Below are positions 607 through 14,898 of a stretch of 26,679 nucleotides of DNA, one piece after another. The stretch is from an uncultured Gammaproteobacteria bacterium (GTDB lineage Bacteria; Patescibacteriota; Patescibacteriia; Patescibacteriales; UBA12465). The DNA is taken from contig CAZXPO010000001.1 in the NCBI GenBank assembly GCA_964643165.1, positions 1 through 26,679 of the forward strand, given 5' to 3'. Position 1 is the first letter of the stretch. Each line of letters starts with the position of its first letter. The notes under the pieces were generated by a model. That model was given only the letters and a program-made list of their open reading frames with translations. It searched no databases and was not told the DNA's origin. Made by a program: the position numbers and the translations under genes.

Positions 607-3198
607 TTATCGACAGTTGCCTGCTGCATCCAAACCAGATTCATTGCTAGTCGGCGAACCAAAACAGCAAGAAGGACTGGAGGCAGTAGCGCTGCATTCA
701 ATGCTTCCGCTTGGACGGAAACAATTTTGATAAATATCGCGAACACCAGAACCGGTTTGAGCATTAAAGGCGCTGGCGGACGAAAATACTGAATGGTTAA
801 TTTTGATATTAGTTTTTGGCACTCCATTATCAGAAAGAAAATTATCGGAAGAAATCCAATAACCAACTGGCTGACCAAAACTAAGAATATTAATAAATTT
901 GTGAGTAGCATCACTTTTGCCGTTATTAATCGTCTTAGCACCAGTGATCAAACTGGAATTTAACATCAAACGATCGAAAGAAAGTGAAACGGGAGTGTTC
1001 AAATCAGCACCGCTAGTGTCGTTTGTTGGCGAGATGGAAGTAATGGTTGGTGCACTGGAAATAATCTTGTCACTAACGAAAAATGACCATTGAAAATTAT
1101 CTTTACCGATTGAGTTGGTGGCGTTTTCATCAAAGATGCTTTGTGGACCATCAGCATAGGTGTCACGATTACCATCAAAAGAATTACCAGAAGCATCAAC
1201 AATTCCCTTGAAAGATAAAACGTCAGCGGCTGGATAAAATTTTCCAGAAGGATTAGCGCAGGCTTTGGCATTCAAAAGATTACTGCAACTATTAAATGGA
1301 TTTTTTATACTACAGTCATTATTGTCATTATTGTTATTGCAATTTTCCAGATTGGCGGCAATCAAAACAACTTTTAATTCTGATTTTCTTGGTAAGCAAT
1401 AAATTTTTTCACCGCAACCATTTACGGCGCATTCATCATTTGATAAAAATTCCAAAGTTTTGTAGTCGCTGGATAAAACAAATTTTCCAGAAACTGGCTT
1501 GTTGTCGGCTTTGTTAACAACTTGGATAGTGCTGCTAACATAGTCAGCTGGACCAGTAATACTTAATGGATTAAGTTCTTTACTAAAATTGATTTGAATT
1601 GCTGAGTTCATTGGCTGATCCGGGTTTCCCCTAGGAGACAAGGCTTCACTGCCATCTTCGCCACCCGAAAAAGGAGTAATCAAAACAGCGTCAGGGCGAG
1701 CAGAATAAATTGATAGATTATTTTGCGCACCAGGCTTGGCGGTGATGATAATTTCTCCGCCTTTTTCTTCGATATCTTTAAAAATTTTTGAAGCTGTTAA
1801 TTCATTAATAATCTTGGCGTTTGCTGCACTCACTGAAAGATTGTTTGGGAAAGAAATAGTTTTTTCACCAATCACTAATTGATCAGCTGGATGAGGTTTG
1901 TTGACGGTGACCTCCCAAGAACTACCAGCAATAATATTATTAATTTTGAAACTAAAAAAATTAGGGAAATTAATAAAATATTCATTACCCTGTTTTGTTG
2001 GTTCTCCAGCACCAATTGTTTTGTTTTTTATTTTGTCAAAAAGAATAAAAGCATTGCCAGAATCAACCGTCACTGAAAAAACATCACTTGTTGAACTGGA
2101 TATTTCTTGATAGTTGGCGCTCATGGTAAAAGAATTTTTATCAATATTTTCTGAGTTGCCAATATTTTTAACTGCGAAGCTAGCACTTCGTGCTGGACCG
2201 AGAGCTCTTAAAACTTTGATTTTGCCAACTGCCGATTTACCTTCTACTGACTGATAGCTATCCTGTTCATTGTCTATCGGAGGAAAGACTCCATTTTTAA
2301 TGATCATTGGCGGAACCAAATCAATCAAGCCATTAACAGAAAACCCCCACTCCAAATAAGCCGGCTGGCAACGATTAAAAATATTTTCGTTTTGCAAATT
2401 TTTTACTTCTCCGGTCAATTTGACAACATAAGATACCGAAGTATTAGCTTCGCCTAAGTATTCTTTTGGCAAAATAACAATTGTTTTTTTGTCATAAGAC
2501 AGGCCAACGGTTGCATTGGTTAAGTTGGTGTTATTATTATTACAACCAGAATCACCACAAGCATTTCCAGTGTCTTTTTTGAAAATTTGGATTGCGGTCG
2601 GATTAAGCTGATTGCATTGATCTGAACAAGCGCAAGGACCACTCGCATCGCGGCAAATTGATTCTGGAGAAACTTCTTCCTTAAAAGTGATCATAATGGA
2701 AGAATTCCTCGGAACATTTGATTTTTCAGCACTCGGATAAAAATTTTCCACCACACAAGCACCAACCGCACCCAAGCCAATTTGGTAGTTTTGTGATTGT
2801 CTGGAAGAACTATTAATTCCGCTAGGGCTGCCGCTACCAGTTAGTTGGCGCAAAATAAAAGCAGCGATTCCCCAAGAAGATAAAATAATAATTAAACCGA
2901 TTAAGGCATTCTTCAGAATTTTTTTGGCAGTTTTTATTTTGTCTTCGTTGCCATTGCTGGTCATCCAAACAAAACCACCATAGATTACCAAGGAAACCGC
3001 AATAATGCCAAGGAACATCAAAAAGATATTGATTATTCTCACCGCCATCACAATTGGATTGGTGTTGCTTAAAATAATATTTTCATCAATCTTGTCCAAA
3101 CCAGTTTCGACGGGAGTTCCGGCTGAAACAAAGGCAGCTGGCAACAAAAAAGCAATTGTAATCAGAAAACTGGCTAACAATTTAAAGCGTTTTTTCAT
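607..3198 (-). CDS. Large surface protein (863 aa): signal peptide, VirB2/TrbC-like pilin core, three Ig-like (Big_5-type) domains with Cys-rich inserts
   Basis: Start moved from 3309 to ATG 3198 (MKKRFKLL...AFVSA-GTP) by alignment with the paralogue at 586. Pilin-like motif IYGGFVWMTSNGNEDKIKTAKKILKNALIGLIII; Ig-like starts FYPSAEKSNVPRNSSIMITF, DQPMNSAIQINFSKELNP, SISPTNDTSGADLNTPVSLSFD. Confidence 0.85.
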   Translation of the reverse strand: MKKRFKLLASFLITIAFLLPAAFVSAGTPVETGLDKIDENIILSNTNPIVMAVRIINIFLMFLGIIAVSLVIYGGFVWMTSNGNEDKIKTAKKILKNALIGLIIILSSWGIAAFILRQLTGSGSPSGINSSSRQSQNYQIGLGAVGACVVENFYPSAEKSNVPRNSSIMITFKEEVSPESICRDASGPCACSDQCNQLNPTAIQIFKKDTGNACGDSGCNNNNTNLTNATVGLSYDKKTIVILPKEYLGEANTSVSYVVKLTGEVKNLQNENIFNRCQPAYLEWGFSVNGLIDLVPPMIIKNGVFPPIDNEQDSYQSVEGKSAVGKIKVLRALGPARSASFAVKNIGNSENIDKNSFTMSANYQEISSSTSDVFSVTVDSGNAFILFDKIKNKTIGAGEPTKQGNEYFINFPNFFSFKINNIIAGSSWEVTVNKPHPADQLVIGEKTISFPNNLSVSAANAKIINELTASKIFKDIEEKGGEIIITAKPGAQNNLSIYSARPDAVLITPFSGGEDGSEALSPRGNPDQPMNSAIQINFSKELNPLSITGPADYVSSTIQVVNKADNKPVSGKFVLSSDYKTLEFLSNDECAVNGCGEKIYCLPRKSELKVVLIAANLENCNNNNDNNDCSIKNPFNSCSNLLNAKACANPSGKFYPAADVLSFKGIVDASGNSFDGNRDTYADGPQSIFDENATNSIGKDNFQWSFFVSDKIISSAPTITSISPTNDTSGADLNTPVSLSFDRLMLNSSLITGAKTINNGKSDATHKFINILSFGQPVGYWISSDNFLSDNGVPKTNIKINHSVFSSASAFNAQTGSGVRDIYQNCFRPSGSIECSATASSPSCCFGSPTSNESGLDAAGNCR

Positions 3199-3235
3199 GA
3201 GAATAATTTTCGGAAAAATTAATTCCGAGTTAGTA

Positions 3236-3264
3236 AATATTGATCTTTTCTTTTTGACGGTCAA
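3236..3264 (-). promoter_or_regulatory. Possible sigma70 promoter for the pilin-like genes
   Basis: Minus strand TTGACC-N17-AATATT; -10 matches only 4/6. Confidence 0.4.
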
Positions 3265-3282
3265 GCATTTTTGGGCTATAAT
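3254..3282 (+). promoter_or_regulatory. sigma70 promoter for relA/spoT
   Basis: TTGACG (3254-3259)-N17-TATAAT (3277-3282), 68 nt before the ATG. Confidence 0.8.
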
Positions 3283-3350
3283 TTGGTAGTAGAAAAAAGC
3301 TTGATACACAGATTTATTTTAACATAAAAATTTAAATTAGTGAAACAAAA

Positions 3351-4820
3351 ATGACCATTGATCGCGTCATCAAAAAATTTAATGATAACAACCCCGACAT
3401 TGATGCTAGTGTCTTGTATTTGGCTTATGATTTTGCTGAAAAAGCTCATCAGGGACAATTGCGTAAAAGCGGCGATTCATACATTACTCACCCTCTTCAT
3501 GTTGCTTATTTACTAGCCGAAATGAAAGCTGATTTAGCAACCATCACCGCTGGAGTTATTCATGACGTCCCAGAAGATACCGATAGAACAATTGAAGAAA
3601 TAAAAGAAAATTTCGGCTCAGAAGTTGCAAACCTAGTAAAAGGCGTGACCAAATTAGGAAAAATCAAATATCGCGGCTTGGAAAGATATCGTGAAAACTT
3701 AAAAAAAATGTTTTTGGCAATGGCGACTGACATTAGAGTGGTTTTTATAAAATTTTGCGACCGTCTACACAATCTCAGAACCCTAGATTATTTGGCGCCA
3801 GAAAAACAACAGCGAATTGCCAAAGAAACCCTGGAAATATATGCACCAATTGCTGGCATTTTAGGAATCTGGCGTCTCAAGTGGCAAATGGAAGATTTGT
3901 GTTTCAAATTTCTCTATCCAGAAGAGTTCAACAAGTTAGAATACAAATACGAAGTTGAAAAAAAGGCTGAAAGAAATAATTTTTTTAACATCATCAAAAA
4001 AATTCTTACACCGCAACTGAAAGATGCTGAAATAAAAAATGAAATTGAAGTCAGATTCAAGCATCTTTATAGTATTTACCAAAAAATGAAAAATAAAGAG
4101 CGGAATTTTGATGAGATTTATGATGTTTTTGCTCTGAGAATAATTGTCGAAAATATTAATGATTGCTACAAAACCCTTGGTATTATTCACACCATTTGGA
4201 AACCAAAACCAAATCGCTTCAAAGATTATATCGCTGTACCAAAACCAAACGGCTATCGCAGTCTCCACACCACCATTTTCGGTCCGGAAGGAAAATTGGT
4301 GGAATTTCAAATTAGAACCAAAGAAATGCACGAAGAATCCATTTATGGTTTGTCAGCTCATTGGTATTACAAAGCTAAACGACAAGAAGATATCAAAAAT
4401 CAACCAGCTTGGATCAAAGAAATTATTGATATTCAAAAAGAAATCAATGACACCAACGATTTTGTCAAAAAAATACAATTAGATGTTTTTAATGACCGAA
4501 TTTTTGTCTTTTCGCCAAAAGGAGATGTTATTGAATTGCCGGAAGGAGCAACTGCAATTGATTATGCTTATGCCATTCACAGCAAAATCGGCAATAGCGC
4601 CGTGAGAGCGATGGTGAATGAAAAGATTTCTCGTCTTGATCAAAAATTAAAAAATAGTGATGTTGTAGAAATTATCACCGAAAAAAACAAAAATCACCCA
4701 AGTAAAGATTGGCTAAAATTTGCCAAAACAAAAAAAGCAAGGGATTCAATTAAGCAACACGCCAAAAAATCAACTTTTGAAAGCATCAAAAAATATATTC
4801 CAGGGATTGGTAAAAAATAA
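3351..4820 (+). CDS. relA: RelA/SpoT homologue ((p)ppGpp hydrolase/synthetase): HD + synthetase + TGS, lacking distal C-terminal domains
   Basis: RKSGDSYITHP, IHDVPEDT (HD), YDVFALRI, RFKDYIAVPKPNGYRSLHT, EFQIRT, TGS motif FSPKGDVIELPEGATAIDYAYAIHS. Confidence 0.95.
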   Translation: MTIDRVIKKFNDNNPDIDASVLYLAYDFAEKAHQGQLRKSGDSYITHPLHVAYLLAEMKADLATITAGVIHDVPEDTDRTIEEIKENFGSEVANLVKGVTKLGKIKYRGLERYRENLKKMFLAMATDIRVVFIKFCDRLHNLRTLDYLAPEKQQRIAKETLEIYAPIAGILGIWRLKWQMEDLCFKFLYPEEFNKLEYKYEVEKKAERNNFFNIIKKILTPQLKDAEIKNEIEVRFKHLYSIYQKMKNKERNFDEIYDVFALRIIVENINDCYKTLGIIHTIWKPKPNRFKDYIAVPKPNGYRSLHTTIFGPEGKLVEFQIRTKEMHEESIYGLSAHWYYKAKRQEDIKNQPAWIKEIIDIQKEINDTNDFVKKIQLDVFNDRIFVFSPKGDVIELPEGATAIDYAYAIHSKIGNSAVRAMVNEKISRLDQKLKNSDVVEIITEKNKNHPSKDWLKFAKTKKARDSIKQHAKKSTFESIKKYIPGIGKK

Positions 4821-4869: not shown

Positions 4870-5109
4870 TTAACGATTATTATTCATCTGAGTTTCTTCT
4901 AATTTGCCAGTCTTACGTAAAAATTCTTTTTCTTTGCTAAGCTTGATGCTTGTCAAAGCGGAAATTTTTAGTTGGCGTTTGTTTTTTTTCGGTTTCAAGT
5001 GTTGAATAGAGCGAGCCTTCTCGAGCCTCTTACTATTTTTCAAGCCTTTTTTGAATTTTCTCAAAAAACTTTCGAAACTTTCACCAGGTTTTCTTTTAAA
5101 ATCAGCCAT
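4870..5109 (-). CDS. rpsU: 30S ribosomal protein bS21 (79 aa, extended C-terminus)
   Basis: KRKPGESFESFLRKFKK N-terminal pattern, highly basic. ATG 5109 chosen over GTG 5118 because that GTG lies inside the SD. Confidence 0.85.
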   Translation of the reverse strand: MADFKRKPGESFESFLRKFKKGLKNSKRLEKARSIQHLKPKKNKRQLKISALTSIKLSKEKEFLRKTGKLEETQMNNNR

Positions 5110-5115
5110 AAAATC

Positions 5116-5125
5116 CACCTCCCTT
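5116..5125 (-). promoter_or_regulatory. Very strong Shine-Dalgarno site of rpsU
   Basis: Minus strand TAG-AAAGGGAGGTG-GATTTT-ATG; GGAGGTG ends 6 nt before the ATG. Confidence 0.9.
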
Positions 5126-5126
5126 T

Positions 5127-6533
5127 CTAAGTATGTTTAATAATATTTATTAACTTGCTTTCATTATTGCTTAAATCTATTTTTTTTGCAAGTTTTTCCC
5201 TTATTTTTTTGATCGGCACAATTTCTTGAACCGTTGAATCCATATCGCGCATCAAAATAGTTTCATCCATTACTTCTTTTTTTCCCATTATTAGGGAAAT
5301 TTTTGCCTTAATTCGTACTGCTTCTTCCATTTGGGTTTTTAGGCTGTCTGTAGAAAAAGATTGGCGAATTTTGAAACCGGCTTGGCGTAATTCATCGAAT
5401 AATTGCAAAGATTTTAACTTAGCAACATCGCTTAGTTGAGCAATAAATACCAAATTGTCTTCAGTTCCTGGCAAAGGATAGTGATGATCACGCATTTTGT
5501 TGGCAGTTCTTTCCAAACCAATTGCCAAGCCAACCGCCGGAGATGATTTTCCTCCCATATTTTCCACCAAAGAATCAAAGCGACCGCCGCCAGCTAAGGC
5601 ATATTTTCCTTGAGCAACGCCAGCGTCATTGACTGGCCAGAATTCAAATACTGTATCGTTGTAATAGTTTAGGCCACGAACCAAGAAAGGATTAAAATTA
5701 TATGGAATATCTAATTCATCCAAGTATTCACAAACTTTTTTGAAGTGATCACGGCTTTCTTCTGACCAAAAATCGGCAATTTGCGGTGCTTCTTCACGTA
5801 ATTTGACGCAAGATTCTTCTTTGCAGTCCAAAAGACTGAGAATGTTTTTTAATAAATTAATTTTGCAATGGTGGCAAACTTTGGAACGGCGACCGCGTTC
5901 ACGATAGAAAGCAGCTAATTTGTGCCCATATTCCTTGCGGCACTCAGATCCACCCAAACTATTGATTTGTACTTGAATATTTATTCCCAAATCTTTGAAA
6001 AAATGATAAGCCAAACTAATCACCATCGCTTCCGCAATCGGTTTTTTGTCTTTGATAATTTCTATTTCAAATTGAGTGAATTGACGTTGGGAATTGTTTT
6101 GTAATTTTTCATTACGAAAAACCGAACCGATTGAAAAAACTCTCAAAGGTGTTTCAACTTCATCCAATTTTTGCTCAATGTAATGACGAATAATCCCCTG
6201 GGTCAACTCGGGACGCAAACACATTCTTTCATTTTTTTCACCAGCTAAAGCATATAACTCTTTTTCCTTAGTAATTCTGGTGCTTTTTTTGTATAAGTCA
6301 ATGTTTTCCAAAACTGGCGTTTCTAAATGCTTAAAACCATAACAAGCACAAAGCTCTTCTGCCTTGCAGCGAGCAATATCAAAATATTCGCTATCAGCAA
6401 TAGAATAATCTTTCATGCCAAACATTCTGGCATAACTTTTTTGAATCCTTCTTTCTGGCTTCTTAGCTAATTCCGGTTTTGCTGCCGAATGGTGACCGAC
6501 AGAATTAGTCTTTTTTTCTTTGGCTTTTTGCAT
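5127..6533 (-). CDS. hisS: Histidyl-tRNA synthetase family protein with divergent catalytic motifs
   Basis: ETPVLE, LRPELT, FRNE..Q....RQFTQ, LVRGLNYY, GGGRFD...MGG...PAVGLAIGLER and a C-terminal anticodon-binding domain. Family is certain; activity is not. Confidence 0.85.
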   Translation of the reverse strand: MQKAKEKKTNSVGHHSAAKPELAKKPERRIQKSYARMFGMKDYSIADSEYFDIARCKAEELCACYGFKHLETPVLENIDLYKKSTRITKEKELYALAGEKNERMCLRPELTQGIIRHYIEQKLDEVETPLRVFSIGSVFRNEKLQNNSQRQFTQFEIEIIKDKKPIAEAMVISLAYHFFKDLGINIQVQINSLGGSECRKEYGHKLAAFYRERGRRSKVCHHCKINLLKNILSLLDCKEESCVKLREEAPQIADFWSEESRDHFKKVCEYLDELDIPYNFNPFLVRGLNYYNDTVFEFWPVNDAGVAQGKYALAGGGRFDSLVENMGGKSSPAVGLAIGLERTANKMRDHHYPLPGTEDNLVFIAQLSDVAKLKSLQLFDELRQAGFKIRQSFSTDSLKTQMEEAVRIKAKISLIMGKKEVMDETILMRDMDSTVQEIVPIKKIREKLAKKIDLSNNESKLINIIKHT

Positions 6534-6537
6534 ATTT

Positions 6538-7107
6538 TTAATATTTAGGCGCTTGAGTAAATAAAGCTATTTTATTTAAAGGCAAGCCGCGCAACAATAC
6601 TTTGCCAACCACAAAACTTTTGTCGATTGGACCAAATGATCTTGAATCCTTGGAAAACATGCGGTTGTCTCCCAAAACAAAATATTGTTTATCGCTAATG
6701 TTTATTTTTTCGCTTTCACGGATTCCGTTAGGCAAGGTTTTAGTGTCTGCTGACAAATAACTTTCATCAAGCTTCCAGCCATCTGGATGGGATTCATTGT
6801 AAATATAAACTCTTCCATTTTTGATTTGCACCGCTTCACCAGGCAAAGCAATTATTCTTTTGATAAAATATTCCTGCGGATCTTCTGGATAACGAAAAAC
6901 CACTATTTGCCCGCGTTGCGGTTCGCTAAAACGATAAGAAATTTCATCAACGATCAAATATTCACGATCATGAAAATTCGGCACCATTGATTCTCCCTTA
7001 ACATAAAAAGGGATAATCAAAAAGTAACGGATTGGTACAATAATCGCAATGGTGATAATCGCCACCTTGACCAGCTCCCAAACATATAGAACCGCTTTTT
7101 TAAACAT
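6538..7107 (-). CDS. lepB: Signal peptidase I
   Basis: N-terminal TM, GESMVPNF (catalytic Ser), FIKRIIALPGE (catalytic Lys), GDNRMFSKDSRSFG. Confidence 0.97.
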   Translation of the reverse strand: MFKKAVLYVWELVKVAIITIAIIVPIRYFLIIPFYVKGESMVPNFHDREYLIVDEISYRFSEPQRGQIVVFRYPEDPQEYFIKRIIALPGEAVQIKNGRVYIYNESHPDGWKLDESYLSADTKTLPNGIRESEKINISDKQYFVLGDNRMFSKDSRSFGPIDKSFVVGKVLLRGLPLNKIALFTQAPKY

Positions 7108-13477: not shown

Positions 13478-14248
13478 TTAAAATTGTTTTAAATATTCAC
13501 TAAATAACATTACTTTTTTTGAATCACTTGGATTAAACAAAAAAGGTTCAACATCTTTTGCTAATAATTCTAAATCTGTTTTTTTTAATTCCGCCAATAA
13601 TTTTTCTTTTACTTCAAGCCAATTATTAACGCCGATTTTGAGCTTCAAATAATCATAATTCGGCTTGGTCAGGCTAAATAAAAAAATGGTGTCAAAAAAA
13701 TCTCTTCCCTTGGAGCGCTTGCGATTAAAAATCGTATAAATTTTTTGCGACAACAAAATATCCAAAGGAGTAGAAAAAATCTGAGTAAAAACATCAAATT
13801 TGTTAATAATTATTTTGTCTGGCTGATATTGAAAATCATGTGGAGCAGTATCTATTTGAATTAAAATTTTTTCATCAGGCATTAAAGATAATTCATTATC
13901 TAGAAGAATTCTCGGTATTTTAAGATAACAACGGAAAGCGCCCTTAAAAACATTTTTTATTTCTACAACGAAACCAAGTTTTTGCATGCCATTTTTTATC
14001 TCTGCGGTTAATTCTATAAATTCCTTCTCGGTTAAACCAAAATTATCAAAATCAAGATCTTCGGAAAATCTGCTATTTCCATGGACAATCCGCAAGGCCG
14101 TACCGCCCAAAAAAGATAACTTGTTGGCAAAAGGAGAATTAAAAATAATTTCTAAAATTTTGTATTGCAAATACTCACGCAAAATATTGCGCTTGAAGGG
14201 GCGTAAGTTTTCTGGATATTGTTTTTCTATTTCTTTAAGCGTTAACAT
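13478..14248 (-). CDS. abiEii: AbiEii-family nucleotidyltransferase toxin (type IV TA / abortive infection)
   Basis: FLGGTALR...RFSEDLDF, K....R..GRDFFD. ATG 14248 preferred over 14254. Confidence 0.9.
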   Translation of the reverse strand: MLTLKEIEKQYPENLRPFKRNILREYLQYKILEIIFNSPFANKLSFLGGTALRIVHGNSRFSEDLDFDNFGLTEKEFIELTAEIKNGMQKLGFVVEIKNVFKGAFRCYLKIPRILLDNELSLMPDEKILIQIDTAPHDFQYQPDKIIINKFDVFTQIFSTPLDILLSQKIYTIFNRKRSKGRDFFDTIFLFSLTKPNYDYLKLKIGVNNWLEVKEKLLAELKKTDLELLAKDVEPFLFNPSDSKKVMLFSEYLKQF

Positions 14249-14858
14249 AATCAATAAATTCCAATAATTTTTTAGCCCGCTTTTCTAAGCTCTTATTATT
14301 AAAAGCTGCTAAATATTTTTCAAATTTTTTCTGATTTATCTTTGTTTTAAATTCATCTTTATTGATTCGGAGCTCGGAAAAATCTGCCTTTGATTTGAAT
14401 TGTGGATAAATATAAAGAAAATCGAGCACAGCTTTTTCCGCATCTGCCATTTTGTAAGTAATCCCGCCGGAGATTATAAGTTGATAACCAAAAATTAATT
14501 CGGACTTCAAATGATGATAAATAAATTCACCAATTTCAGTTTTAAATTTTTTTGTTTTTCCGGCGGCAGCAGAAGTAATTCCATAAACACTTTCCGGAAT
14601 TAAACCATAAAAAGACAGGGCCATTTCAAAAGAAATATACGAAGGGGAATATATTTTATTGGCAATTAAAAACAAAACTGATTCGTTCAATTCTTGGTCG
14701 GAAAAAAAATAAAAATCACGACGAAGCTTTTTGAGATAGTTTTTGTTTTGCCAATCATTCAAACGGGAACGATAAAAAGACTGATCAATTTTACGAATAT
14801 CTTGCGAAGAAAAAACAATATAGTCTTTCAAAGCCTCTTTTAGTTCTAAATATTGCAT
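14235..14858 (-). CDS. abiEi: AbiEi-family antitoxin / transcriptional regulator
   Basis: N-terminal wHTH-like region, PSYISFEMALSFYGLIPE, ADAEKAVLDFLY; directly upstream of and overlapping abiEii. ATG 14858 preferred over TTG 14870. Confidence 0.88.
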   Translation of the reverse strand: MQYLELKEALKDYIVFSSQDIRKIDQSFYRSRLNDWQNKNYLKKLRRDFYFFSDQELNESVLFLIANKIYSPSYISFEMALSFYGLIPESVYGITSAAAGKTKKFKTEIGEFIYHHLKSELIFGYQLIISGGITYKMADAEKAVLDFLYIYPQFKSKADFSELRINKDEFKTKINQKKFEKYLAAFNNKSLEKRAKKLLEFIDYVNA

Positions 14859-14864
14859 ACTTAT

Positions 14865-14898
14865 TTCCAATAAATACGATATTTCGTATTCTTTGGAA
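14865..14898. promoter_or_regulatory. Inverted repeat, probable AbiEi operator
   Basis: TTCCAATAAATACGA-TATT-TCGTATTCTTTGGAA: 15-bp arms with 13 matching, between the -10 and the start codon. Confidence 0.7.

Follow-up and report, generated by a model that had tools for sequence, protein, structure and literature searches.

Throughout a family of Patescibacteria two types of histidyl-tRNA synthetase (HisRS) are kept side by side, and the copy examined here is the ancestral one, which has evolved at an accelerated rate and has been remodelled outside a catalytic centre that is itself intact and constrained. The gene, hisS, lies on a stretch of 26,679 nucleotides (hereafter the window; contig CAZXPO010000001.1 of assembly GCA_964643165.1) from an uncultured bacterium of the GTDB lineage Patescibacteriota, Patescibacteriales, UBA12465. 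Genomes of 0.6-1 Mb rarely keep redundant proteins of 450 residues; the whole family nonetheless keeps two HisRS of different origin. A first-pass annotation, made from the letters of the window, had read the gene as a paralogue with eroded catalytic motifs and an intact anticodon domain, possibly a pseudo-enzyme or a tRNA sensor. Judging from the residues kept and lost, we lean with moderate confidence towards a protein in which histidine activation and tRNA-His binding persist; most likely it would serve as a secondary or specialised HisRS that handles the acceptor end in an altered way. We refer to the window hisS as type A and to the second hisS of the same genome, on contig C7, as type B. 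Conserved sites are numbered as in the Escherichia coli enzyme (1KMM), taken from an ungapped HMMER alignment to the window protein.

Two HisRS types and the ancestry of the window gene

The window protein (P0001) scores 346.3 bits against TIGR00442, the NCBIfam hisS equivalog with a curated cut-off of 286.75 bits, and carries the Pfam domains tRNA-synt_His and HGTP_anticodon. An AlphaFold2 model with 34 orthologues as input has a mean predicted local distance difference test score (pLDDT) of 82.3, falling below 50 only at residues 1-26, at residues 87-89 within a shortened loop and in the C-terminal tail. The closest structures in the Protein Data Bank (PDB) are the bacterial HisRS 4E51, 1ADJ, 1KMM and 4RDX, with template modelling (TM) scores of 0.85-0.89 by target. 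The Lys-rich N-terminus is present too in the consensus of the family and sister HisRS orthologues.

The first-pass annotation had proposed looking for a second canonical hisS elsewhere in the genome, and there is one. The window genome (G000; 590 kb, 84% complete) encodes a second full-length canonical HisRS, P0002 (G000:C7:4966-6261; 431 aa), which scores 334 bits against TIGR00442. Its motifs are canonical (motif 2 FMRNEKPQRGRNREFWQL, RGFDYY, GGGRYN), and its closest solved relatives are those of Thermoplasma (1WU7) and Trypanosoma (3HRI), the 'GD' form of motif 3 being common to all three. Types A and B are about 25% identical. The type B gene (L002:1468-2763) starts at the last stop-codon base of an upstream 400-aa open reading frame (ORF) that by sequence reading resembles a RarA/MgsA-type AAA ATPase, and downstream of it lies a GTPase-like ORF similar, again by sequence reading, to TypA/BipA. 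That the second hisS might stem from contamination was considered and rejected: the GC and tetranucleotide content of C7 is typical for the bin, each of the seven relatives in the genus has both types, whose phylogenies run parallel, and in a further family genome (G010) types A and B lie, together with a type D, on one 882-kb contig.

Copy number was compared in 40 relatives, 24 of the same family and 16 from sister families of the order. At least two full-length hisS genes (two or three) were found in 23 of the 24 family genomes, with two each in the closed single-contig genomes G012 and G018. The remaining one, G020, cannot be used as a natural loss of type A; its adjacent rel is also missing, and an assembly gap is likely. 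Among the sister-family genomes 12 of 16 gave a single hisS match at threshold, these copies scoring 420-445 bits, and four (G028, G036, G038, G040) gave extra partial or split matches. One of these, G038 (C16:184474-190029), has a canonical hisS with, 3 kb downstream, a hisS-like sequence broken into two frames (225 and 100 bits) that may be a decaying tandem copy. In an even class-level sample of 201 genomes about 88% carry one canonical copy. Single hisS genes with unusually low scores (E about 1e-83 to 1e-100, as against 1e-130 to 1e-149 for most) were seen, for example, in G078, G136, G179 and G211 (family f55) and in G048, G091, G191 and G235; these may be lineages in which the ancestral gene was fully replaced.

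Within the family the acquired copies are not uniform. G012, G016 and G018 (L031, L021 and L022) carry, instead of type B, a type C about 30% identical to it, and G010, G017 and G021 (L040, L067 and L053) carry a third full-length HisRS, type D. Since types C and D exist, the acquisition of HisRS in this family was not a single simple event. The searches did not trace type B to a source outside the Patescibacteria, the best 120 source-named matches all being from Patescibacteria or Falkowbacteria.

In a maximum-likelihood tree the type A proteins of the family form one clade (support 100) nested inside the single-copy sister hisS, with a family stem of 0.34 and a further 0.39 to the genus of the window. 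Type B also forms a clade with support 100, and because its internal topology parallels that of type A, both types must have been present in the family ancestor and have been co-inherited. The gene order queA-lepB-hisS-bS21 with a convergent rel is common to the family and to the sister families, which have only this one, canonical, hisS. Tree nesting and shared gene order together identify the window gene as the ancestral orthologue and type B as the newcomer. The window hisS is thus a vertically inherited, positionally orthologous copy and not a product of duplication, contrary to the paralogue proposed at first.

Phylogeny and site conservation had been among the checks named by the first-pass annotation. 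The acceleration of type A is gene-specific and not lineage-wide: when family-to-sister identity is divided by identity among the sisters, hisS comes out at 0.75, its neighbour lepB at 0.96 and bS21 at 0.90. By domain the ratio is lowest in the N-terminal catalytic half (0.67), followed by the C-terminal catalytic part (0.75), the insertion (0.80) and the anticodon-binding domain (0.81). Positional orthology, a distant second copy in the same genome and gene-specific acceleration, the marks of a displaced ancestral aminoacyl-tRNA synthetase (aaRS), are all found here.

An intact pocket within a remodelled protein

All nine charged residues that are universally conserved in HisRS keep their charge in the window protein, and the class II and pocket residues are in place (R113=R140, R311=R342, E83=E109, Q127=Q154, E131=E158; E. 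coli number first, window number second). A histidine/ATP pocket set, chosen a priori and reduced to the 12 sites conserved in the sisters, was retained at 12/12 sites in the window protein and at 93% in the genera of the family, compared with 72% for a background of 157 sister-conserved sites (permutation p 0.003). Among the 120 closest cluster representatives from a database of 5.8 billion proteins, a sample biased toward query-like sequences, E83, T85, R113, Q127, R259, Y263, Y264, E270, R287, R311 and E391 are invariant, and E131 is conserved in 119. Within the genus the ratio of nonsynonymous to synonymous substitution rates (dN/dS) of type A is 0.03-0.05, with dS values between about 0.5 and saturation; that of type B is higher, mostly 0.06-0.10 (range 0.035-0.10). 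A complete pocket, invariance among the relatives and this low dN/dS lend no support to the pseudo-enzyme suggested at first. The anticodon domain, by contrast, is indeed intact as had been claimed: PF03129 is matched and E391, equivalent to T. thermophilus Glu388, which reads G34 (PMC4357726), is retained in 23 of 23 family members as well as in the close relatives.

The residue mapping and motif readings of the first-pass annotation were correct at every residue. What it had called eroded catalytic motifs holds for the motif 2 loop, HisA and HisB and the 57-65 loop, all of which are changed, and fails for the pocket and catalytic residues, which are retained. In motif 2 the correspondence runs R113=R140, P117=L144, G120=N147, R121=S148, R123=R150, Q127=Q154, G129=E156 and E131=E158. 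G120 and R121, conserved in 40-42 of 42 canonical HisRS, are replaced by N147 and S148, and these states are fixed in 7-8 of the 8 genomes of the genus. The reported loss of TD(I/V)V before KE(M/L)Y corresponds to the shortened 57-65 loop (Table 1).

Changes at sister-invariant sites fall into two layers. Family-wide are G57R with a three-residue deletion, P117L/V, R199N, R206S/A, D262N/S, the loss of three Cys from one insertion-domain cluster, and Q389K; confined to the genus of the window are G120N, R121S and G134K. The derived states are themselves conserved among the 120 close relatives, with R at position 57 in 120 and N at position 199 in 113 of them; both sites are invariant in all 14 single-copy sisters, yet were changed and then fixed in type A. 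Single-copy sister HisRS (e.g. L017) carry two four-Cys clusters in the insertion domain, in the part equivalent to window positions 5820-5950. The family type A keeps one of them (C220, C223, C237, C242 in the window protein); the other has lost its Cys at E. coli positions 170, 230 and 233.

Not every change is informative. G129 is variable even among the canonical sister HisRS, and D141E, K186R and Y288F are conservative substitutions. P117 and D262 were tried as signs of inactivity and rejected, as they are not universal: the accepted HisRS of Thermoplasma and Trypanosoma lack them and read RGLSYY and RGLAYY. D262N and Y288F are likewise found among accepted HisRS.

The losses fall on the tip of the motif 2 loop, the 57-65 loop and the arginines of the insertion domain. 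In the complex of T. thermophilus HisRS with tRNA (PMC4357726), Arg120 (E. coli R121) reads C74, Arg197 and Arg204 (R199 and R206) grip the acceptor stem on its 3' strand, the Glu64-bearing loop approaches A76, which Glu64 contacts, and the G-1 pocket is made by a pair of glycines across the dimer. By mutagenesis most of the acceptor-contact residues are individually dispensable, except Glu64 and Glu114 (PMC4357726); the equivalents of both are retained in the window protein. R123 and Q118, reported to read G-1 and C73 (PMC10100707), are present as well. With only the residues named in PMC4357726, acceptor-contact retention was 0.54 against a background of 0.69 in the family (p 0.07) and 0.58 against 0.68 in the window protein (p 0.33), so that erosion of acceptor-arm contacts is a trend only. 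A first residue set had given p 5e-5; it had partly been picked after the changes were known, and its outcome was set aside.

Co-evolution with an altered tRNA-His identity, as in alphaproteobacteria, was also considered and rejected. The window genome has one tRNA-His gene (GUG) with encoded G-1, C73 and CCA, and the same identity set was found in the 14 other family genomes and two sister-family genomes with a readable tRNA-His gene; neither G-1:C73 nor GUG differs between family and sisters, and there is one tRNA-His gene per genome.

Enzyme, relic or regulator

The course of events that we favour would run as follows. The family ancestor, Falkowbacteria-like, acquired a second HisRS of archaeal or eukaryote-like type, both copies being co-inherited since. 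The ancestral copy, no longer solely responsible for charging tRNA-His, would then have evolved faster and been remodelled outside its chemical centre, through the shortened 57-65 loop, P117L (with G120N and R121S in the genus) and D262N, the loss of R199 and R206 and the loss of one Cys cluster. Strong purifying selection has continued to act on the histidine/ATP pocket, on R123 and Q118, on the glutamates that contact A76 and on the anticodon-binding domain. The window gene would represent an early stage of a path that in some relatives ended in copies predicted to be catalytically dead.

Several observations weigh against a protein that still works as a synthetase. In a set of 33 sites at least 92% conserved among 52 canonical HisRS of four types, six are changed in the window protein (G120N, R121S, G134K, D141E, K186R and Y288F), which exceeds ordinary variation since canonical sequences lose 0-4 of these sites (median 0). 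R121, conserved in 40 of 42 canonical HisRS, is Ser; according to Arnez et al. (1997) this arginine reportedly also contacts the gamma-phosphate of ATP. The loop bearing the essential Glu that meets A76 is shortened, and the conserved pocket could equally serve ligand sensing instead of catalysis. Moreover, within the family core catalytic residues are lost from type A of G015 (R113H, E131Q) and G018 (E131S, R287H, T85I), which on this evidence are clearly predicted to be catalytically dead. Because these two and other two-copy families have lost catalytic residues, aminoacylation cannot be what keeps type A in every lineage. One subclade of the family also has R259K.

The fate of type A elsewhere was followed in ten more genomes with two copies, spread over eight further families of the class and all with a best copy that scores below the canonical level. 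Each of the ten has a lepB-syntenic type A and a HisRS of non-bacterial type. Their type A is eroded to degrees between mild (f73) and severe, the severe cases being G185 (R259S, Y263M, Y264H), G082 (R123Q, R259K), G226 (R113Q, R259A) and G138 (R113S, R259H); the anticodon-domain motif ILGQ(K/R)E is kept in all. In families f20, f59, f92 and f105 the type A ORFs are full-length but have clearly lost catalytic arginines, and these copies are predicted to be dead as well.

It is against this background that the main idea of the first-pass annotation has to be weighed, namely that the window protein is a pseudo-synthetase that does not charge but binds tRNA-His, and perhaps histidine or ATP, as a sensor, chaperone or sequestering factor. 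The loss of R121 and G120, the shortened A76-proximal loop and the missing acceptor-stem arginines R199 and R206 would fit such a protein, as would its constant company of a canonical HisRS and the orthologues of G015, G018, f20, f59, f92 and f105 that lack catalytic arginines and are yet full-length with an ILG(Q/K)KE motif; strong purifying selection indicates that some function is maintained. However, the residues for the pocket and for transfer (E83, R113, Q127, E131, R259, Y263, Y264, E270, R287 and R311) are all kept, whereas a true pseudo-HisRS, the Gcn2 domain, is without the HisA Arg, the Tyr pair and the ATP/His side chains (PMC11363354). The acceptor contacts lost here are of the kind dispensable in T. 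thermophilus, the two exceptions being kept (PMC4357726), and the contact set chosen a priori is eroded only as a trend. We therefore hold a non-charging window protein to be rather unlikely.

A broader form of the same thought may be entertained, tentatively and with doubt: native Patescibacteria HisRS, once backed up by an acquired one of archaeal or eukaryote type, could repeatedly have escaped deletion by being repurposed into proteins that read the tRNA-His anticodon, bind histidine and ATP in the case of the window protein, and do something other than charging, for instance sense or sequester tRNA-His or report on histidine status. If this were true, the genus of the window would be a present-day link from the enzyme to the dead tRNA-binding copies of other families.

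At the other extreme, the window protein might be the ordinary housekeeping HisRS, its changes the neutral drift of fast-evolving proteins of the candidate phyla radiation (CPR), and the C7 copy an accessory. It passes the hisS equivalog cut-off, stands at the ancestral locus in a housekeeping operon, has a complete pocket and shows a dN/dS below that of type B. Yet the acceleration is confined to this gene and coincides with a second HisRS, here and in seven other families, and sites invariant in the 14 single-copy sisters were changed and then fixed (G57R in 120/120, R199N in 113/120). Type A is, moreover, catalytically dead by its residues in some family members, where the housekeeping must be within the reach of type B or C. 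This explanation appears distinctly improbable to us.

On our preferred reading, a remodelled but probably active secondary synthetase, the window gene belongs to a natural series in which the displacement and possible repurposing of an essential synthetase can be studied: related lineages show type A further along, its catalytic residues gone and its anticodon-domain motif kept. The residues singled out by the series are G57R with the loop deletion, P117L, R121S, R199N and R206S. There is also a practical side. Both genes are annotated 'histidine--tRNA ligase', and metabolic reconstructions and hisS marker phylogenies can therefore choose the wrong copy.

Neighbouring genes and known systems

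The features of the window gene and of its immediate neighbours are collected in Table 1. The neighbours are those that had been described at first, a bS21-like ORF after hisS and a Rel of 489 residues without a Pfam domain past residue 443. The GTG start at 5118 of the mechanically called bS21 ORF is probably not used.

Table 1. Features of the hisS region (positions in the window; residues in E. coli numbering unless stated otherwise).
Feature	Position	Strand	Basis
rel, HD + RelA_SpoT + TGS, 489 aa; convergent with the hisS operon, 300 nt away	3351..4820	+	Pfam
bS21-like gene; likely start ATG at 5109, 17 nt past the hisS stop, with a strong Shine-Dalgarno-like GGGAGGTG ahead of it	4870..5109	-	weak Pfam match to Ribosomal_S21, E 0.0088
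hisS type A, ancestral bacterial-type histidyl-tRNA synthetase, 468 aa (P0001)	5127..6533	-	TIGR00442, Pfam, AlphaFold2 model
HGTP anticodon-binding domain with IMGKKE motif (E391 equivalent, window E420, reads G34)	5184..5456	-	PF03129, E 1.8e-8
Motif 3, GLAIGLER; class II arginine R311 (window R342) kept	5508..5531	-	alignment
HisB motif, GGGRFD; G285, G286, R287 kept; Y288→F	5574..5591	-	alignment
HisA motif, RGLNYY; catalytic R259 and Y263/Y264 kept; D262→N	5661..5678	-	alignment
Insertion-domain segment CHHCKINLLKNILSLLDCK; R199→N, R206→S (T. thermophilus R197, R204); K211 kept	5820..5876	-	alignment
Motif 2, FRNEKLQNNSQRQFTQFEIE, window residues F139-E158; R113, E115, Q118, R123, Q127, E131 kept; P117→L, G120→N, R121→S	6060..6119	-	alignment
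LRPELT, histidine-contacting element with E83/T85, kept (sisters: LRPEAT)	6201..6218	-	alignment
Shortened loop KKSTRITKEKELY in place of canonical SxGxxSD(I/V)VxKEMY; G57→R, 3-residue deletion, TD(I/V)V absent; essential Glu of KE(M/L)Y kept	6252..6290	-	alignment
Lys-rich N-terminal extension, window residues 1-38, ahead of the first HisRS motif GMKDY	6420..6533	-	translation; low pLDDT
lepB (signal peptidase I), 4 nt upstream of hisS, in the queA-lepB-hisS-bS21 unit	6538..7107	-	domain search, synteny

Adjacency to rel and bS21 had been taken as a functional hint, and we reject it as evidence of a link to either. Rel open frames are about 490-520 aa long in 38 of the 41 genomes with a match, across the order, and the synteny is equally order-wide; because both extend to genomes in which hisS is the sole canonical copy, neither the truncation of Rel nor the adjacency is tied to the erosion of hisS. 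That the window protein is a regulator of the HisZ or Gcn2 kind, with ATP phosphoribosyltransferase or the neighbouring truncated Rel as its partner, is hardly credible in spite of its HisRS fold and of the nearby convergent rel with no Pfam domain after its TGS: HisG (PF01634) was not found in the window genome or in five relatives (G001, G008, G012, G014 and G018, two of them closed), the score of 132.2 bits against TIGR00443 (HisZ) lies far below the cut-off of 271.65, short Rel and hisS-rel adjacency are uncorrelated with erosion, and the two genes, being convergent, are not co-transcribed. The HisZ role, and with it the analogy drawn in the first-pass annotation, was rejected on these grounds.

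Elsewhere in the window, at 13478-14870, a gene for an AbiEii-type nucleotidyltransferase toxin (PF08843) overlaps a 211-aa ORF without Pfam matches, possibly its AbiEi partner; the two head a run of genes for an M16 peptidase, a UvrD/PD-(D/E)XK helicase-nuclease, ruvB, queA, lepB and hisS. At 2-586 and 607-3309 two proteins with type IV secretion pilin-like domains (PF18895) are encoded, one of which has 900 aa and also a Big_5 Ig-like domain.

A literature search found no paper describing two HisRS or an eroded HisRS in CPR; comparison is with systems known from elsewhere. With bacterial class IIa HisRS (E. coli 1KMM, T. thermophilus 4RDX, Burkholderia thailandensis 4E51) the window protein shares the domain order, a core with motifs 1-3, HisA, HisB, the insertion domain and the HGTP domain, as well as a score above the equivalog cut-off, the nine universal charged residues and the fold (TM 0.85-0.89). 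Unlike them it has R121→S, G120→N, P117→L, D262→N and Y288→F, lacks R199, R206 and one insertion-domain Cys cluster, has a shortened 57-65 loop with G57→R, and is not the sole HisRS of its genome.

HisZ also derives from HisRS; it needs HisG, which was not found here in the six genomes searched, and is usually without the anticodon-binding domain that the window protein has. The HisRS-like domain of Gcn2 (PMC11363354) resembles the window protein in its HisRS origin, its retained anticodon-binding domain and some diverged catalytic signatures. It is, however, fused to a kinase and has lost the HisA Arg, the Tyr pair and the ATP/His side chains, whereas the window protein stands alone at 468 aa and keeps them all; neither the residue loss nor the effector fusion that mark a Gcn2-type pseudo-enzyme is seen in it. 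From the dead type A copies of f20, f59, f92 and f105 the genus of the window differs in having lost loop and acceptor-contact positions only, and not catalytic residues.

The nearest parallel lies in the xenologous aaRS pairs that are common in bacteria (PMC5388404). As there, one genome holds two homologues at low mutual identity, here about 25%, as expected for horizontal transfer and not for recent duplication. Here, unlike in those pairs, the pair is fixed across a family with genomes of 0.6-1.1 Mb, and it is the resident copy that diverges, not the incomer, an outcome that recurs in several families of the class.

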